Shown here piece after piece: positions 7,523-52,396 of a stretch of DNA of 64,000 nt. Made by a program: the position numbers and the translations under genes. Origin of the DNA: Escherichia phage PC3; sequence record ON184125; one strand, given 5' to 3'. The notes under the pieces are model-generated. The model saw only the letters and a program-made list of their open reading frames with translations. It was not told the origin of the DNA and did no database searches. How positions within the stretch are numbered: the first letter of the stretch is position 1; every line of letters starts with the position of its first letter.

Positions 7523-9031
7523 ATGGCAGACATTCAGATTGTTAAGGTTAACGAAGTCCGCATGCGTTGCATCGCAGATCTTTCTATCAGGGAAGAACTT
7601 AATGACTACTTCAAATTCGAAGACCCGAACTTCGTTCCCAACCCCTTCTCTAAATGGGACGGGGTTGTCCGCCTATTTACCAAGTCATCTGGTCTAATCG
7701 ATATCGGTCTGCTGTTTGAGGTATTTAAGTTCTGTAAGAACAACGGATACACCATTGAACTGGATCCGGCACTGAAGTACATTCAGGACATCCCAGATGA
7801 AGAAATCCGTGAATTCATCGACAGTCTGCATCCAAAGATCCGTACCGAAAATCACGAATATATCGATGCCGAGACTCGTGACTACCAGTACGACACCATC
7901 GCCAAGGCTATGCGTCAAACCAGATGCGTCTGTGAACTGGCTACGAGTGCCGGTAAGTCCTTTATTCTGTATGTCATGGCGCGGTACTACAGGCGGCGCA
8001 GAGAAGCTCTCGAAAGTCCTCTGAAGACGCTTATCGTGGTGCCGTCAATCCACCTAGTCACTCAGCTGTACGACAACTTCGAAGAGTATGCGCATGGCAG
8101 TGATTGGAAGCCCGTTGTTAACACCCAGCTGATTTTTGAGGGCGCGACAAAGGAGATCAGCAAACCAATCGTCATCAGCACATGGCAAGGCATTCAAGAC
8201 CAGCCGAAGGAATGGTTCCACCAGTTCGGTGATATCGTGGTGGATGAAGTGCACACCTCCAAGTCTGAGAAACTGTCTTACATCCTAAACAACTGCATCT
8301 ATGCCGACCAGCGCCTGGGGGTTACAGGTACGCTGGCGAATACCAAAGTTGCCGGGCTTCAGGTGGTGGCTCACTTCGGGGCGTACCATAAGATCATCAC
8401 GGCTCGCGATCTCATCAATCTCGGGTACGCCACTGACATCAAAGTGAAGATGATTCAGCTGAAGCACACTCCGGCGGATGCTGTTGGTCTGGACGGGGAT
8501 TATTCCAAGGAAATAGAATACCTCATTACACACCAGTCCCGCAACGAACTGATCGCCAAGATGGCACTGAATCTGAAAGGAAACGTGGCCATCATGTTCG
8601 AGCGTATTGATGGTCACATGATGGTCGTGTATGATATGCTGAGCGCAGTCAAGCCCAACGTGTTTGTCATCAACGGGGAAGTGAAGATCGAAGACCGCCG
8701 CCGCATACAGAAAGCGATGGAGGATGGAGAGGACATCACCCTGTTGGCATCATACGGGACAATGCAGCAGGGAGTGTCGATCAAGAAGCTACACCACCTT
8801 GTACTGGCACACCCGAGCAAGTCATATATCCGCGTCATACAGACATTGGGTCGTCTGATGCGTCAGCACTCCTCTAAGGACGTCGCGTGGATATGGGACT
8901 TAGTGGATGATGCATCGTACAACGCCAGCACGAACCACACTCTTAGGCACTCTCACGAGCGTTACAAGTTTTACCTGGCAGAGCGCCACCCCGTGGAGTT
9001 CATGAAGGTGGCGCTGGGTAATCACGATTAA
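7523..9031 (+). CDS. uvsW: SF2 DNA helicase, UvsW-like
   Basis: Walker A TSAGKSF, DEVH box, further SF2 motifs; ORF 7430-9031 trimmed to ATG after GGGAG. Confidence 0.6.
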   Translation: MADIQIVKVNEVRMRCIADLSIREELNDYFKFEDPNFVPNPFSKWDGVVRLFTKSSGLIDIGLLFEVFKFCKNNGYTIELDPALKYIQDIPDEEIREFIDSLHPKIRTENHEYIDAETRDYQYDTIAKAMRQTRCVCELATSAGKSFILYVMARYYRRRREALESPLKTLIVVPSIHLVTQLYDNFEEYAHGSDWKPVVNTQLIFEGATKEISKPIVISTWQGIQDQPKEWFHQFGDIVVDEVHTSKSEKLSYILNNCIYADQRLGVTGTLANTKVAGLQVVAHFGAYHKIITARDLINLGYATDIKVKMIQLKHTPADAVGLDGDYSKEIEYLITHQSRNELIAKMALNLKGNVAIMFERIDGHMMVVYDMLSAVKPNVFVINGEVKIEDRRRIQKAMEDGEDITLLASYGTMQQGVSIKKLHHLVLAHPSKSYIRVIQTLGRLMRQHSSKDVAWIWDLVDDASYNASTNHTLRHSHERYKFYLAERHPVEFMKVALGNHD

Positions 9032-9399
9032 TCTTGATTCACATAGGCGGGGGTGGCCTCGCCTTCATCAGCTACTACACCGAACAATTTGTCCAGAGAA
9101 GCCAGACATTGTGCGTTCAGGTGTTCACTGATCGTATCCTTCAGCATTTGTTCGCTGTTCAATTGGAATGGCAGAACCTTCGCTTCGATGCCGTTTTCAA
9201 ACGTCACAACGCCAACATACAGACCAACTTTCAGACCTGTCATCAAGCCAAGGGGGACAAATCGCGGCTCCGATGGTAAGTGCTTGTCTGACGCCAGCTG
9301 TGTCAGATAAACTGGGGTGCCTGTGATAAATTGACCTGTGGTGAGGTTGGCGTCTGGCTTACTACACCCGACTGCGTATAATCCTACGAACTGTTTCAT
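9028..9399 (-). CDS. Hypothetical protein (123 aa)
   Basis: Minus-strand ORF with GAGAG SD-like sequence; convergent with helicase gene. Confidence 0.45.
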   Translation of the reverse strand: MKQFVGLYAVGCSKPDANLTTGQFITGTPVYLTQLASDKHLPSEPRFVPLGLMTGLKVGLYVGVVTFENGIEAKVLPFQLNSEQMLKDTISEHLNAQCLASLDKLFGVVADEGEATPAYVNQD

Positions 9400-9529
9400 A
9401 TATTACTCTCGTGTGTTGGTTAACATGACATACATATTATTTCGCGTGCATGTTTAGACCAAATAAATTATTTTTGCTGTTGAATAAAAACTGCTTTCTT
9501 GTTGAACAATGGCGTGGTATTATACGAGT

Positions 9530-9630
9530 TGTGAGCGAAGCGAACAACGAGTATTTGTTTTATGAGCGAAGCGAATAGGATTAATAAAGATTATTATCTT
9601 TAATAAAGGTTATTATCTTTAATAAAGTCC
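9530..9630. repeat. Intergenic direct repeats (gagcgaagcgaa twice; ttaataaag / ttattatc tandem units)
   Basis: Short direct and tandem repeats in the AT-rich 360-bp gap upstream of gene 45; 20-bp atgagcgaagcgaataggat also occurs inverted near 52140-52159. Confidence 0.4.
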
Positions 9631-9759
9631 ATAAATGCCGAAGGCATTTATTAATAACGCGTAGCGCAATTTGCCACTTGTTCTATAAGCAAAACACAGC
9701 GATACTAGATTGCGTCAAACATGACTTGAACCCCCACTATATTTTGAGGATACATACAA

Positions 9760-10428
9760 ATGCAAGAGATCACTCTCTCCGAACGTACACTTCAGTTGCT
9801 GGCCAACTTTGAGACCATCAACCCATCTATCGTTCTGACACCGGGCAAGATGCTGCGCAGTATTAATGATTCTTCTACTGTGATCGCCGTGGCGCAGATC
9901 GAAGAAGACTTCCCGTTTGAGTTCCCGATTCTGGACCTGACCAAACTTCTGGCCATCCAGCGCCTACCTTCCTTCAAAGGTGCCAAAGCCGAATTCCATC
10001 AGGACTACATCCTGTTGAAAGGCGAAAGCTCTCAGCTGCAATTCTGGCGTTCTGCTAAAGAACTCACGGTTGTCCCGGCTGATACTATTGAACTGCCGTC
10101 TGTCGACTTTGAAGCGATCATCACTCCAGAGAAGATGAAAGAACTGACCCGCGCCTGTTCTACCCTCGGACACAAGACTGTGCGCCTGGTTGCTCAGGGT
10201 GGCAAAACTCGCCTGGTTGCAACCACCACTACCCTGGACAACTCCAACAACTACACTGTTGAGCTGGGCGAAACCGCGCTGCCGGACTTCGTAATGCCAC
10301 TGGATGTTGCCAACCTGAAAATGATCGAAGGCAACTACACTCTGCGTGCATGTGCTGATCTACAAATGGTGAACTTCCAATCATCCGACGCGACGATCAA
10401 TTACTTCGTCGGCGCGCAGATTGAGTAA
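9760..10428 (+). CDS. 45: Sliding clamp (gp45-like)
   Basis: 222 aa; similar to T4 gp45 along its length (N-terminal LLANFETINPSIVL..., C-terminal KMIEGNYTL...); followed by clamp-loader genes. Confidence 0.85.
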   Translation: MQEITLSERTLQLLANFETINPSIVLTPGKMLRSINDSSTVIAVAQIEEDFPFEFPILDLTKLLAIQRLPSFKGAKAEFHQDYILLKGESSQLQFWRSAKELTVVPADTIELPSVDFEAIITPEKMKELTRACSTLGHKTVRLVAQGGKTRLVATTTTLDNSNNYTVELGETALPDFVMPLDVANLKMIEGNYTLRACADLQMVNFQSSDATINYFVGAQIE

Positions 10429-10509
10429 TCAATCTCCAGCCTGATGCTATAATGTGTGGGCGGGGGAGTTCCCCGCCTATTTGAAATGATTCTTCTACAC
10501 GAGGCTGAA

Positions 10510-11166
10510 ATGAGGAACCAACCGTTTGTATATCATTTGTTAGGGAAGGATGGTTCTTTCTATTTTGGTTCTAGAACGAAATTGGGTGCACATCCTTTAC
10601 AATTGTTCACTTCATATTTCACTTCTTCACAAACAGTCAAGGAAATCATATCTAAGAAAGGTTCTGATTTCTTTGATGTAGAATTCGTAGAACTGTTTGA
10701 CTCCCCAGAAGAAGCATATTGGAGAGAGCAGCAGTTGATTAGTGAGAACATTGATCACCCAAAATGTTTAAACAAATCATTTCAGCCACTGGGTTGTGGT
10801 ATCGCCAACGGTAGGTCAGCGGGACCCAAACATCACCGAGTTGGTGTCTCGAGTTGGTTGAAGGGTAAGTCTGGGAATCTTCATCCCATGCACGGAAGAA
10901 CTGGTAAAAGTCACCCCGCCGCAGGAATAAAACCTTGGGACACCGGGGCTGCGCTGCTACACAACACCAGACCGATGTGGTTAAAGGCTGGGGTAGTGTA
11001 TGATCACTGGGTTTCTACTGGTGATGGGTGCCATAGAATTGCCCGTTTGTTCTCTATCAAAGAGAACACCGTAACGAGTATGTTAAACAAATTCAAAGAG
11101 GGCTGGAACCCGTATGATGACGACGCTTGGGTTCTGTTCTGTAAACTATATCATGGAAATACATAA
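10510..11166 (+). CDS. GIY-YIG homing endonuclease (Seg-like) with NUMOD-like C-terminal motifs
   Basis: FVYHLLGKDGSFYFGSRT ... EAYWREQQLISENI match GIY / YIG / conserved Arg, Glu, Asn; locally AT-rich; inserted between genes 45 and 44. Confidence 0.6.
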   Translation: MRNQPFVYHLLGKDGSFYFGSRTKLGAHPLQLFTSYFTSSQTVKEIISKKGSDFFDVEFVELFDSPEEAYWREQQLISENIDHPKCLNKSFQPLGCGIANGRSAGPKHHRVGVSSWLKGKSGNLHPMHGRTGKSHPAAGIKPWDTGAALLHNTRPMWLKAGVVYDHWVSTGDGCHRIARLFSIKENTVTSMLNKFKEGWNPYDDDAWVLFCKLYHGNT

Positions 11167-31086: not shown

Positions 31087-32188
31087 AATTGGCGATCTGC
31101 ATATCGGGAGCCGTAATGGTTCTCGATACGTTCGCGACTTCATCAAGAACTATCTCATCAATTATTTCATTCCTGAACTTGCCGACTCTGATATCAAAGA
31201 GGTCTGGCAGTTCGGTGATATGTTTGATGTCCGCAAATTCATGTACGGTCGTGACAAAGACTGGCTGAAGGATGAACTCACCCCTGCATTGAAAGCGGCT
31301 GGTATCAAGTGGAATGGCATCGTGGGTAACCATGACATCACCCTGGAAGAGTCCAACCGCATCAACTGGCCATCCTACCTGAACGAACTCGACCCGGATG
31401 TGTACTGCTATTACAGCGAACCGACCGAAGTGATGATCGAGGGTGTCAAGACTCTGCTGCTGCCTTGGATCAACAAGGAGAACTATGATGCGTCTATTAA
31501 AGCGATACAAGATACAGACGCCGAGTACTGTTTTGCGCATCTGGAGCTGGCGGGGTTCAAAATGTACCAGTCTTCTACTTGTGATCACGGTCAGATCGAC
31601 GTTGCTCTGCTTTCCAAGTTTACCAGGGTCGACACGGGCCATTTCCATACCCGTTCGATGGAAGGTAACATTCAATATATTGGGACTCCATATCACCTGA
31701 ACTGGGAAGACTACAAAGACGGCACTAACCGTGGCTTCTATGTGGACGACATGCGTGGTGGTGAGATCTTTATCCCGAACGCCGAGCACCAGACGCTGTT
31801 CCGCTATGTGGAATATGATTACACCAAGTTGTCCTCTGATGAAGAAGGTAATTGGATCGACCCGGAATGGCTGAACACAGGCTTGGGTATTGAAGGGCAA
31901 ATTGTTAAGGTTATTGTACAGAACCGTGACAATGCTAAGCATTATGAAAAGTTCTGTGATGCGATGAAGCGATGCAAGTGTATTGACTACAACTTCATCG
32001 ACCGGACGATTACTGTTGCTGCCGAGAAGGTTGAGGTCACCGAAGAGATGGTGGCGACCGATGCGGTGGAAGTCCTGAAGAAGGATATCCGCGCCGGGAA
32101 CAACATTCAGCGCCCCGACAACGTCTGTAAACTGGCAGAGCACTTCTATAATGCTGCCCAACAACGCCTGAACAAACTGGATGCATAA
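31073..32188 (+). CDS. 47: Recombination endonuclease subunit (gp47-like, Mre11/SbcD family)
   Basis: Phosphoesterase motifs GDLHIG, GDMFD, GNHD, GHFH; collinear with T4 gp47. Confidence 0.85.
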   Translation: MAIAKIGDLHIGSRNGSRYVRDFIKNYLINYFIPELADSDIKEVWQFGDMFDVRKFMYGRDKDWLKDELTPALKAAGIKWNGIVGNHDITLEESNRINWPSYLNELDPDVYCYYSEPTEVMIEGVKTLLLPWINKENYDASIKAIQDTDAEYCFAHLELAGFKMYQSSTCDHGQIDVALLSKFTRVDTGHFHTRSMEGNIQYIGTPYHLNWEDYKDGTNRGFYVDDMRGGEIFIPNAEHQTLFRYVEYDYTKLSSDEEGNWIDPEWLNTGLGIEGQIVKVIVQNRDNAKHYEKFCDAMKRCKCIDYNFIDRTITVAAEKVEVTEEMVATDAVEVLKKDIRAGNNIQRPDNVCKLAEHFYNAAQQRLNKLDA

Positions 32189-50420: not shown

Positions 50421-52031
50421 TTACTCTTTGGTGCCGAAATTACCACCATTGTCTTTTAATTCTGCCTTGATGTCAATCTCACCCGGACCCGTAGGGGATG
50501 CAGGGGTTGCACCTGACAGAGAAGAAGCGCGACCAGCACCTTCGGCATATATGATGTTACCATTGATCGTCTGAGCGACAGTCAGTTTGTCAGCGATTAT
50601 CTCAGTCGTTAGAATCTTAGGAACCTTCAATGTCCCACCGACCTCCAGAGTCTCGCAGATAATGCGCAGAATATTCTGCGCTTGCATTTCCGCCAAGTCA
50701 CTGAATTTCATCAGCGCTGTGCCCGCAACCACGTTGGAGTAATTGTTGGAATGCAAATGATAGACCTCACCTGTCTTGCGCTGAACTTCAGTTCCTTTGA
50801 CCGTCAGGTTGTGGTCCCCGCCGACATAATAACGCTTGTTGAACATCGTCAGGTCATAGTGGTCTTTGACGGACTTGTTGACCACATCACCATCCGGCAA
50901 CATTTGCTTGTAAGACCCAGACTTATGCATCCAGTGAAGACGTTCACCACCAGGGGTGTCATCCACTTCCATAATATGCCCAGCTCGGGACACCATGACG
51001 TTATTGTACGGGTATTTGGAGCCACCCGCAGCCGGAACCATGGTTTCTCCAGTGTTGTCAATATCCTGTACTCGCCCAGTAGGAGCCGGAGTCGGTTGTT
51101 CCTTTGGAGTACGATCTGGGATAGGTTCTGACCATTTACCATTCTGCTGCGCAGGCACGGCTGTGGCTGTGTTAGCAGGACCAGGCCAACGATATCCCAA
51201 GACCGAAGAACGTCTGAAACGACTGACCTTCACTGAATCGGATTGGTTGCCACCAATACACCAGACATAGTTTGCATCGAACTTCTGCACAAACGCTACG
51301 TGTCCAAATGTAGGGTTGTTACCACGCCGGAAGACTACGATAGCGCCATATTGTGGTGCTGACAGTGGAGTGCCCCATGTAAGGTAAGATCGGGCAAGAG
51401 CGGAGCGTGTAGACGTATATCCAGCCTGTATCATAACCCAACCCACGAACGCCGCACACCACGACACTTCATCTTCAGAAGCACCAAGGGAGGTTGTCTT
51501 GTGATATTCTATAATGCGCGGGTTGTTGTTGAACTTTCCAGCATACTCCTTGATACCTAATTCGCCACGAGCGATTGTCATCCACTTCTCTGGATCATAC
51601 CCGCCAACAGGTGGTTGTGGATCTGGTTGTGGTTCGTCTTCTTGTTTCACAGGAACGTCAGTGACGGCGTTGTACGCCTGACGTTCCACAGATTGAACGA
51701 CCTGCCCGAGAGCCAGTGGGTTTGTGTCGGCACCATCAGTAGGGCTTGAACCAGTCCAAGTCCAGGTGATGCGTAAATTCTGGTATGCTTCGTCAAGGGC
51801 GAACCCCATAACCTCAGTGCCAGGAATGATACCCGTCGGAGACCAACCTAAACCAGCAGAAGAGGCGTTTGAAGCAGGCATCAGTACCTTCGCCCATGGG
51901 AGTTTGTCCGTAGGCAGGAGGACGGGATCGTCGGTGTGTACGCCATAGATGCGGACGGCGACGCGCCCGTTTTGGTCTGGATCGTTGACATCTTCAACGG
52001 TGCCGTAAAACCATCTCATATTGTCTAACAT
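50421..52031 (-). CDS. Baseplate hub/central spike protein (gp5-like) with CHAP peptidoglycan-hydrolase domain
   Basis: N-terminal WFYGTVEDVNDPDQNGRVAVRIYGVH OB-fold like gp5; central CHAP-like Cys (WCAAFVGW) and His (GHVAFV); Gly-rich C-terminus. Confidence 0.6.
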   Translation of the reverse strand: MLDNMRWFYGTVEDVNDPDQNGRVAVRIYGVHTDDPVLLPTDKLPWAKVLMPASNASSAGLGWSPTGIIPGTEVMGFALDEAYQNLRITWTWTGSSPTDGADTNPLALGQVVQSVERQAYNAVTDVPVKQEDEPQPDPQPPVGGYDPEKWMTIARGELGIKEYAGKFNNNPRIIEYHKTTSLGASEDEVSWCAAFVGWVMIQAGYTSTRSALARSYLTWGTPLSAPQYGAIVVFRRGNNPTFGHVAFVQKFDANYVWCIGGNQSDSVKVSRFRRSSVLGYRWPGPANTATAVPAQQNGKWSEPIPDRTPKEQPTPAPTGRVQDIDNTGETMVPAAGGSKYPYNNVMVSRAGHIMEVDDTPGGERLHWMHKSGSYKQMLPDGDVVNKSVKDHYDLTMFNKRYYVGGDHNLTVKGTEVQRKTGEVYHLHSNNYSNVVAGTALMKFSDLAEMQAQNILRIICETLEVGGTLKVPKILTTEIIADKLTVAQTINGNIIYAEGAGRASSLSGATPASPTGPGEIDIKAELKDNGGNFGTKE

Positions 52032-52365
52032 ATTGAATTCCGGTTGTCAAACAAGGATTTGAAGGTATTTATGCGCAGCTGATTTTGCCTTATATACTAT
52101 AGGAAGCTCTGCTTCCGTTCATTTTATTTGTTTTATTCGATCCTATTCGCTTCGCTCATCAAACCGCCCTATGCGGGCAGCACCATTCCAATGCCATGGA
52201 GGCATAAGGGCGAGGCAATAACTGTACACCCCAGAACACTCCTTGAAAAATGGTATTTTACTGACAATCTGATTCAAAACAGACAAACACCAACAAATAA
52301 CTCGGGAATAAGCCCATTATAGCAATTTCAGGTAAAGAAAGTTCGTGTTAACCGATTTTACAGTT

Positions 52366-52396
52366 AAGCCAATAAAAATCCCGCCGAAGCGGGATT
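52366..52396 (-). terminator. Rho-independent terminator (minus strand)
   Basis: aatcccgc-ttcg-gcgggatt stem followed on minus strand by TTTTTATT; downstream of minus gene ending at 52544. Confidence 0.6.

Follow-up and report, generated by a model that had tools for sequence, protein, structure and literature searches.

Within the window (the whole stretch of 64,000 nucleotides that was analysed), a 360-bp gap at 9400-9759 separates two divergent genes, an ORF on the minus strand (9028-9399) and gene 45, which codes for the sliding clamp (9760-10428, plus strand). Record positions given below are those of Escherichia phage PH4 (ON184126.1; Ackermannviridae, Aglimvirinae), a ViI-like phage, with position 1 of the window at record position 32001; whole-genome scans covered the 155,895 bp of PH4. 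Gene 45 heads a T4-like cluster in the order 45, GIY-YIG homing endonuclease, 44, 62 and regA. The GIY-YIG/Seg-like endonuclease gene (10486-11166, plus strand) is inserted between genes 45 and 44, and several further homing endonucleases are annotated in the PH4 genome. The divergent neighbour codes for a 123-aa protein of unknown function (PHROG 4255), confined to the Ackermannviridae, for which Pfam gave no match and a fold search no informative one. Its residues 109-123 are predicted to be disordered and form a nearly invariant tail, EGEATPAYVNQD, which looks like a protein-docking peptide; a homologue of this protein is named “clamp loader subunit” in one source.

The gap is AT-rich, as an earlier note on this DNA had described it: the G+C content is 26-36% at 9400-9700, with a minimum of 26% at 9550-9649, versus about 48% in the flanks, so that an A+T-rich segment of the kind that iteron origins have for unwinding is present. 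The gap aligns over its full length, at 70-100% identity, in 273 phage records, all of them from Ackermannviridae. Such identity is unusual for non-coding DNA and was counted in favour of the preferred explanation, and the gap upstream of gp5, which enters the comparison below, is likewise conserved across relatives. The best explanation for the 360-bp gap is a conserved divergent control region.

Promoter-like boxes can be placed on both of its strands. For the minus-strand gene, sequence and alignment suggest a putative sigma-70-like promoter at 9434-9462, with a -35 box TTGGTC (reverse complement of 9457-9462), a 17-nt spacer and a -10 box TAATAT (reverse complement of 9434-9439), overlapping the invariant block GTTTAGACC. 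On the plus strand, the conserved upstream box AAAACTGCTTTCTT (9487-9500) is shared, genome-wide, only with the locus upstream of gp6 (AAAACTACTTTTCT). We had considered AAAACTRCTTTYCT as a general phage promoter class and rejected it, as it occurs at the gene-45 and gp6 loci only. The -10-like hexamer TATTAT at 9518-9523, which is TAnTAT in other genera and lies 4 nt upstream of the first hairpin described below, is a putative distal gene-45 promoter on the basis of the alignment and of Erwinia phage phiEa2809; its -35 box is poor, and the consensus promoter scan missed it. A putative proximal gene-45 promoter at 9678-9706 (TTGTTC, 17 nt, GATACT) is suggested by the alignment, both boxes being conserved family-wide. 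Just upstream of the putative distal promoter there is also a direct repeat, TTTGCTGTTGAATAA and TTTCTTGTTGAACAA, with 22-bp spacing (9473-9509), and the related boxes CTTGTTC and CTTGAAC recur at 9677-9683 and 9725-9731.

The repeats for which the earlier note had singled out the gap are all there. The 12-mer GAGCGAAGCGAA occurs twice, at 9533-9544 and 9564-9575, followed by a tandem array (19-bp unit, 2.5 copies, 9581-9627) and by a short hairpin (9631-9651), and the 20-mer ATGAGCGAAGCGAATAGGAT at 9562-9581 has an inverted copy at 52140-52159 on the minus strand. A chance match that relatives would not keep was what the note named as a refutation; the 20-mer gave 0 matches in 100 shuffles with 3 mismatches allowed, which puts it far beyond chance, and the motif is kept family-wide at both loci and also at a third one. 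Small peptides over the 20-mer (…ERSE-stop, MSEANR…) were discarded, since other genera keep neither their ATG nor their frame. The exact 12-mer has only three occurrences in the whole 155,895-bp PH4 genome, and its exact repetition in the gap is a trait of the PH4 lineage: in A221 and AV101, the closest relatives of PH4, the centre of the first copy is GTTA and not GAA. In an alignment of nine genera or species, the second 12-mer is essentially invariant, and the first varies centrally (GAGC-GAA-GCGA, GAGC-TTT-GCGA, GAGT-GTTA-ACGA).

This pattern is that of a stem-loop, in which closing pairs are followed by G·A and A·G, by G-C and C-G, and by a loop of 3-4 nt. Hairpin 1 (9528-9548, plus strand) reads GTTGT / GA / GC / GAA / GC / GA / ACAAC, with the tandem G·A next to its outer stem; in relatives its loop is GAA, TTT, GTTA or GTCA, and an inner pair changes from C-G to U-A. 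Hairpin 2 (9561-9577, plus strand) reads TAT / GA / GC / GAA / GC / GA / ATA and includes most of the 20-mer; its closing pair changes from U-A to C-G in other genera. We aligned 19 hairpin instances from three loci in about ten phages. The six positions of the core G-A-G…C-G-A are invariant in 19/19 instances across five genera, while the loop may be GAA, TTT, GTTA, GTCA, TTCA, GTA, AAC or ATA, or be replaced by a 7-bp stem extension. The closing pairs covary (CG in 9 and UA in 7 instances, UG in 2; AU in 11, GC in 5), and of the two inner G-C pairs the C-G one shows a compensatory change to U-A, once. Paired cells amount to 82.7%, versus 25-55% in slid controls with the 3′ partners shifted, and RNAalifold predicted both hairpins of the gap independently. 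As the compared phages are related, shuffle controls overstate significance. Both are kept, with other loops, in Erwinia phage phiEa2809, whose gp45 is only 54% identical and was reached by tblastn, whereas inspection by eye of the Vibrio Ackermannviridae reached in the same way showed no motif. A search for related loci with gp45 returned close relatives only, and an IMG/VR scan for the 14-mer CGAGCGAAGCGAGT gave mostly chance matches and was uninformative.

The strand on which the element is read can be judged from the same data. G·U wobbles occur in the sense strand only, where the opposite strand would have A·C mismatches, and the sense RNA folds at -34 kcal/mol (z -4.15) versus -22.5 for the antisense. 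The covariation, the sense-strand wobbles and the non-Watson-Crick G·A pairs together point to RNA rather than to a double-stranded DNA operator, and a non-palindromic core with a freely variable centre is unlike a dimeric binding site in duplex DNA. A covariance model of the hairpin found exactly five in the 156-kb PH4 genome, all intergenic and all in sense orientation to the downstream gene: the three known copies and two new ones at record positions 151229-151341, upstream of gp6. The flanks of the hairpin differ by lineage (AUGAGC…GCGAAUAGGAU in Aglimvirinae, ACGAGC…GCGAGUAG in Kuttervirus, ACGAGC…GCGAGUUGA in Taipeivirus), and within a lineage they change in concert at all three loci, as with GUAG to GUUG in Taipeivirus, indicating either one shared reader or gene conversion between loci. 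The shared operator for a phage regulator proposed in the earlier note is thus supported as a shared recognition element, which is conserved and has flanks that vary in concert, and is unlikely as an operator in duplex DNA, the covariation being RNA-like.

At the gp5 locus the inverted 20-mer belongs to a larger structured module of 82 nt (52130-52211, minus strand), which consists of a stem-loop SLA (ATGCC..GGCAT), a pseudoknot (CCAT with ATGG) formed by pairing of the SLA loop (CCAU) with a downstream AUGG, a second stem-loop SLB (CTGCCC..GGGCGG) and then the G·A hairpin. In 13 aligned gp5 and gp6 copies, 234/234 pair cells are standard and 6/18 pairs show compensatory double changes, among them a pseudoknot pair that changes from A-U to C-G at both loci in Taipeivirus, while slid controls were 27-47% paired with almost no compensation; the result was repeated on 25 distinct IMG/VR sequences. 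The PH4 genome contains exactly two copies of the full module, at gp5 and gp6. In IMG/VR, the pseudoknot signature was found in 42 stretches, of which 38 lie on contigs of 152-162 kb, two for nearly every such contig, and a 39th on a 9.8-kb fragment in which the full module is also present. The signature, GCCTCC(A/C)TGGC…GGAA(T/G)GG, also occurs in three G+C-rich contigs of IMG/VR that do not resemble Ackermannviridae and have no other part of the module, which could be chance or a more widespread small motif.

The module at gp5 is framed by transcription signals. Upstream of it, and downstream of the terminator of the gp26 operon (52377-52396), lies the extended -10 promoter TGCTATAAT (52316-52324, minus strand), which matches the consensus and is present in all genera. 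Downstream, a hairpin GGAAGC-aga-GCTTCC (52102-52116, minus strand), with the compensatory form GGATGC..GCATCC in Taipeivirus, is possibly the end of the upstream transcript. It is followed by the T4-type late promoter CATAAATA (52066-52073, minus strand); the start codon of gp5 comes 35-42 nt further on, at 52031. At both gp5 and gp6 a late promoter, (C)ATAAATA or CTAAATA and then CTTCAA, lies between the module and the start codon, at 35-45 nt from the latter, so that late mRNAs should not carry the module. A “hypothetical protein” is annotated at 52128-52322 (plus strand) and has equivalents elsewhere, such as CPT_May_153, with strand and frame differing between genera. The ORFs over the gp5-upstream element themselves differ between genera, and a 1-nt indel within its conserved block breaks any common reading frame, which makes these annotations doubtful; they are probably a mis-annotated non-coding element.

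The third locus is a gap between divergent genes that precedes gp6, a baseplate wedge gene (record positions 151065-151417, outside the window). It opens with the same upstream box and hairpin 1 as the gene-45 gap and continues with sequence like that upstream of gp5, so that it carries the hairpin-1 type element, the 82-nt pseudoknotted module and a G·A hairpin with the 7-bp stem extension. Every element at the three loci lies in sense orientation just downstream of a conserved promoter-like box, these promoters being putative and judged from sequence, and after every G·A hairpin the sequence turns A/U-rich. Pairs are thus kept by compensatory changes in a region that is non-coding, as in a structured RNA, and the repeats, as far as their sequence tells, are copies of a conserved RNA hairpin belonging to an undescribed family of promoter-proximal structured non-coding elements at three loci.

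The remaining repeats of the gene-45 gap behave differently. The 19-bp tandem TTAATAAAGATTATTATCT (9581-9627, plus strand; 2.5 copies) consists of A and U only and forms an A-U hairpin in the RNA fold; it has 1.5 copies in AV101, Ag3 and LIMEstone1, 2.5 in PH4 and 3.5 in A221. It is a slippage-prone A/U hairpin region and not a conserved iteron array. The iteron-like character that the earlier note had seen in the repeats is therefore not supported: the 12-mers are covarying hairpins, and the one real tandem array differs in copy number between close relatives. The perfect 9-bp palindromic hairpin ATAAATGCC-gaa-GGCATTTAT (9631-9651) is terminator-like and has ATAAATG on both strands, one base off ATAAATA, the late-promoter core of the family, which is found before gp5 and further late genes. 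Three of the nine pairs in its stem are G-C, its plus-strand tail is TAATAA, and the terminator scan was positive on the minus strand only. It is conserved in Aglimvirinae and Kuttervirus only, and not in Taipeivirus or Miltonvirus, so that the genera show no obvious terminator in common. The palindrome could terminate transcription in both directions or act as two weak late promoters.

The best reading of the three loci, to which we give about an even chance, is that they carry cis-acting structured RNA signals recognised by one shared factor. Given the observed structure, conservation, copy number and position of the elements, the box AAAACTGCTTTCTT together with TAnTAT would start a sense transcript upstream of gene 45, whose first ~50 nt would fold into two like stem-loops followed by the A/U-rich stretch, and the same G·A hairpin closes the 82-nt pseudoknotted module upstream of gp5 and gp6. 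One trans-acting factor, which may be a phage or host protein or RNA polymerase itself, would recognise these signals by their invariant G·A platform and would determine, for transcripts begun at the upstream promoters, either read-through versus termination or stability. A search for a candidate binding protein gave none, the adjacent ORF having no informative fold match, and literature searches found no Ackermannviridae transcriptome or description of non-coding RNA. The expected position of the module outside late mRNAs is as compatible with a separate small RNA or a primer RNA as with a leader.

If the RNA were a primer, the three loci might be origins of the T4 oriF/oriG type, where a structured primer RNA from the conserved promoter would form a persistent R-loop in the downstream A+T-rich segment and its 3′ end would prime the leading strand; we regard this as possible, though on the unlikely side. 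A structured primer RNA is known from ColE1 (RNA II), and T4 oriE is reportedly located in the gene 5 / gene 6 baseplate region. The PH4 loci adjoin uvsW, gene 45 and baseplate genes, much as T4 origins lie at or near divergent transcription and beside replication or late genes, and the G+C content at 9550-9649 falls to its 26% minimum. T4 origins are often found where transcription diverges, and oriE, which has short direct repeats, relies on an early promoter (PMC3016281). A promoter followed by an A+T-rich segment, to which the promoter-like box and A/T-rich tract at all three of our loci may correspond, is also the anatomy of the R-loop origins oriF (uvsY) and oriG (gene 34), with oriE showing the same likeness (PMC3016281). 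However, R-loop formation in T4 is sequence-independent and needs no specific RNA structure (PMC3016281), whereas the PH4 loci conserve a covarying pseudoknotted fold, so that the pseudoknot and the invariant G·A hairpin would be left unexplained. The A/T-rich segment, moreover, is short at the gp6 locus (~20 bp) and variable in length at the gene-45 locus. T4 origin promoters are MotA-dependent and the Ackermannviridae have no MotA; the spacing from TGCTTTC to the -10 box is 19 nt here and not 12±1. An iteron origin would need at least three regular, conserved direct repeats of ~17-22 bp, and here the array has 1.5, 2.5 or 3.5 copies and the centres of the 12-mers vary. Cumulative GC skew, to which the earlier note had looked for signs of an origin, is flat (0.08-0.09) across 6-12 kb, with no inflection at 9.4-9.8 kb, this being a weak test for T4-like phages with multiple origins; no initiator gene was recognised in the one gene screened, the neighbouring ORF 9028-9399. 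On these data a replication origin at the gap is not supported, yet it stays a live rival. A related idea, which we find highly improbable, is that the loci are RNA-primed clamp-loading sites next to late promoters, that is, a cis-encoded “enhancer” of T4-type late transcription. An R-loop of the structured transcript would arise in the A/U-rich tract, with the pseudoknot and the G·A hairpin holding or positioning the RNA, and the 3′-OH of the transcript, having the polarity of the non-transcribed strand, would load gp45 facing the late promoter 50-100 bp downstream at gp5 and gp6, and might also prime replication. The argument on polarity is one that we infer from the clamp-loading rules reviewed in PMC2988020.

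The elements may instead be independent trans-acting small RNAs of ~125-210 nt, made from the upstream promoters, ending at the hairpins at 9631-9651 and 52102-52116 and titrating or guiding a host or phage factor. The arrangement at gp5 would suit them, with the consensus extended -10 box between the terminator and the module and the late promoter beyond the 3′ hairpin, which places the modules outside late mRNAs, and so would the A-rich, ARN-like stretches that precede the terminal hairpin. Yet the 3′ hairpins have no proper U-tract and are not conserved in all genera, complementarity to a target was sought and not found, and Rfam holds nothing similar, which makes small RNAs of this kind doubtful. 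Sites in double-stranded DNA, whether operators or iterons for a phage DNA-binding regulator or initiator, would agree with two copies spaced 31 bp apart (three helical turns), with a third 42 kb away and with the conservation and concerted flank changes of all copies, but are very unlikely: no pair of half-sites forms a Watson-Crick palindrome (GAGC faces GCGA, not GCTC), the centre varies freely in sequence, and in length by up to 16 nt, all five copies are sense-oriented, the true tandem array varies in copy number, and the covariation of the pseudoknot beside the motif could not be read in duplex DNA. Hardly credible is a middle promoter of the T4 kind, dependent on MotA and lying on the opposite strand. 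The LIMEstone1 record (HE600015/NC_019925) annotates one there, taking its -35 “CTT” from the reverse complement of hairpin 2 and its -10 box from TAATAC. GCTTCGC does resemble the TGCTT core of the MotA box, but the “putative middle promoter” of LIMEstone1 was predicted by pattern matching only (PMC3296691), ViI-like phages have neither MotA nor AsiA (PMC3184105), and such a promoter would explain neither the covariation nor the variation of the loop.

Antitermination signals are among the known RNA elements closest to the structured cis-acting RNA that we prefer. The nut/boxB sites of lambda and putL/putR of HK022 lie shortly after early promoters and act in cis on the polymerase as it transcribes; like the PH4 elements they are short, promoter-proximal stem-loop RNAs in two or three copies per genome. 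In boxB, however, the loop is recognised and conserved as a GNRA-like pentaloop, whereas in the PH4 family the loop varies freely in sequence and length and the G·A platform of the stem is invariant; the PH4 elements also lack a counterpart of boxA and any sequence similarity to the lambda system, and an N homologue was not recognised. The autoregulatory operator of T4 gene 32 has in common with them a 5′ pseudoknot and, after it, an A/U-rich tract that is unstructured and contains UAAA-type repeats. That operator is part of the gene 32 mRNA and extends into the ribosome-binding site, whereas in PH4 the A/U tract stops 90-130 nt short of the start codons and the genes concerned are 45, 5 and 6 rather than gene 32. 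The 5′-GA/3′-AG tandem mismatch beside G-C pairs recalls kink-turns and loop E, and the tandem G·A/A·G is found in 19/19 instances; a kink-turn was nevertheless rejected, there being no 3-nt bulge and the G·A pairs being flanked directly by Watson-Crick pairs on both sides. The loop region in PH4 spells GCGAAGC, the sequence of the very stable d(GCGAAGC) mini-hairpin known from phage origins. As a conserved feature this mini-hairpin was dismissed, because its GAA loop is freely replaced in relatives. None of the families in Rfam release 15 showed a likeness at the three loci, where a search at E ≤ 10 returned nothing relevant, the best match (E = 0.09) being to unrelated small RNAs overlapping a terminator.

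In ViI-like phages, which have neither MotA nor AsiA, the signals of early and middle control have been described as unknown (Kutter et al., CBA120; PMC3184105), and the genome papers of 2011 and 2012 both describe this control as such. The elements are a concrete, testable candidate for it: a structured RNA in several copies, without a counterpart in Rfam, which has a pseudoknot and an unchanging G·A platform and precedes one operon for the sliding clamp and two for baseplate genes. Were they true origins or antitermination signals, they would define the timing of replication and of late expression in the Ackermannviridae, phages widely used in biocontrol and therapy. The analysis also suggests that many “hypothetical protein” calls in GenBank over the gp5-upstream element are wrong.

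Two minor observations concern the surroundings of the gp6 locus. The gp6-upstream gap of PH4 is ~94% identical to that of Kuttervirus and only ~78% identical to those of Agtrevirus and Limestonevirus, and from these identities the baseplate/tail-spike module of PH4 looks mosaic. Record positions 147480-150494 comprise 3 kb without an annotated CDS and contain at least a tRNA-Ser(GCT) and a tRNA-Met(CAT), both on the minus strand.
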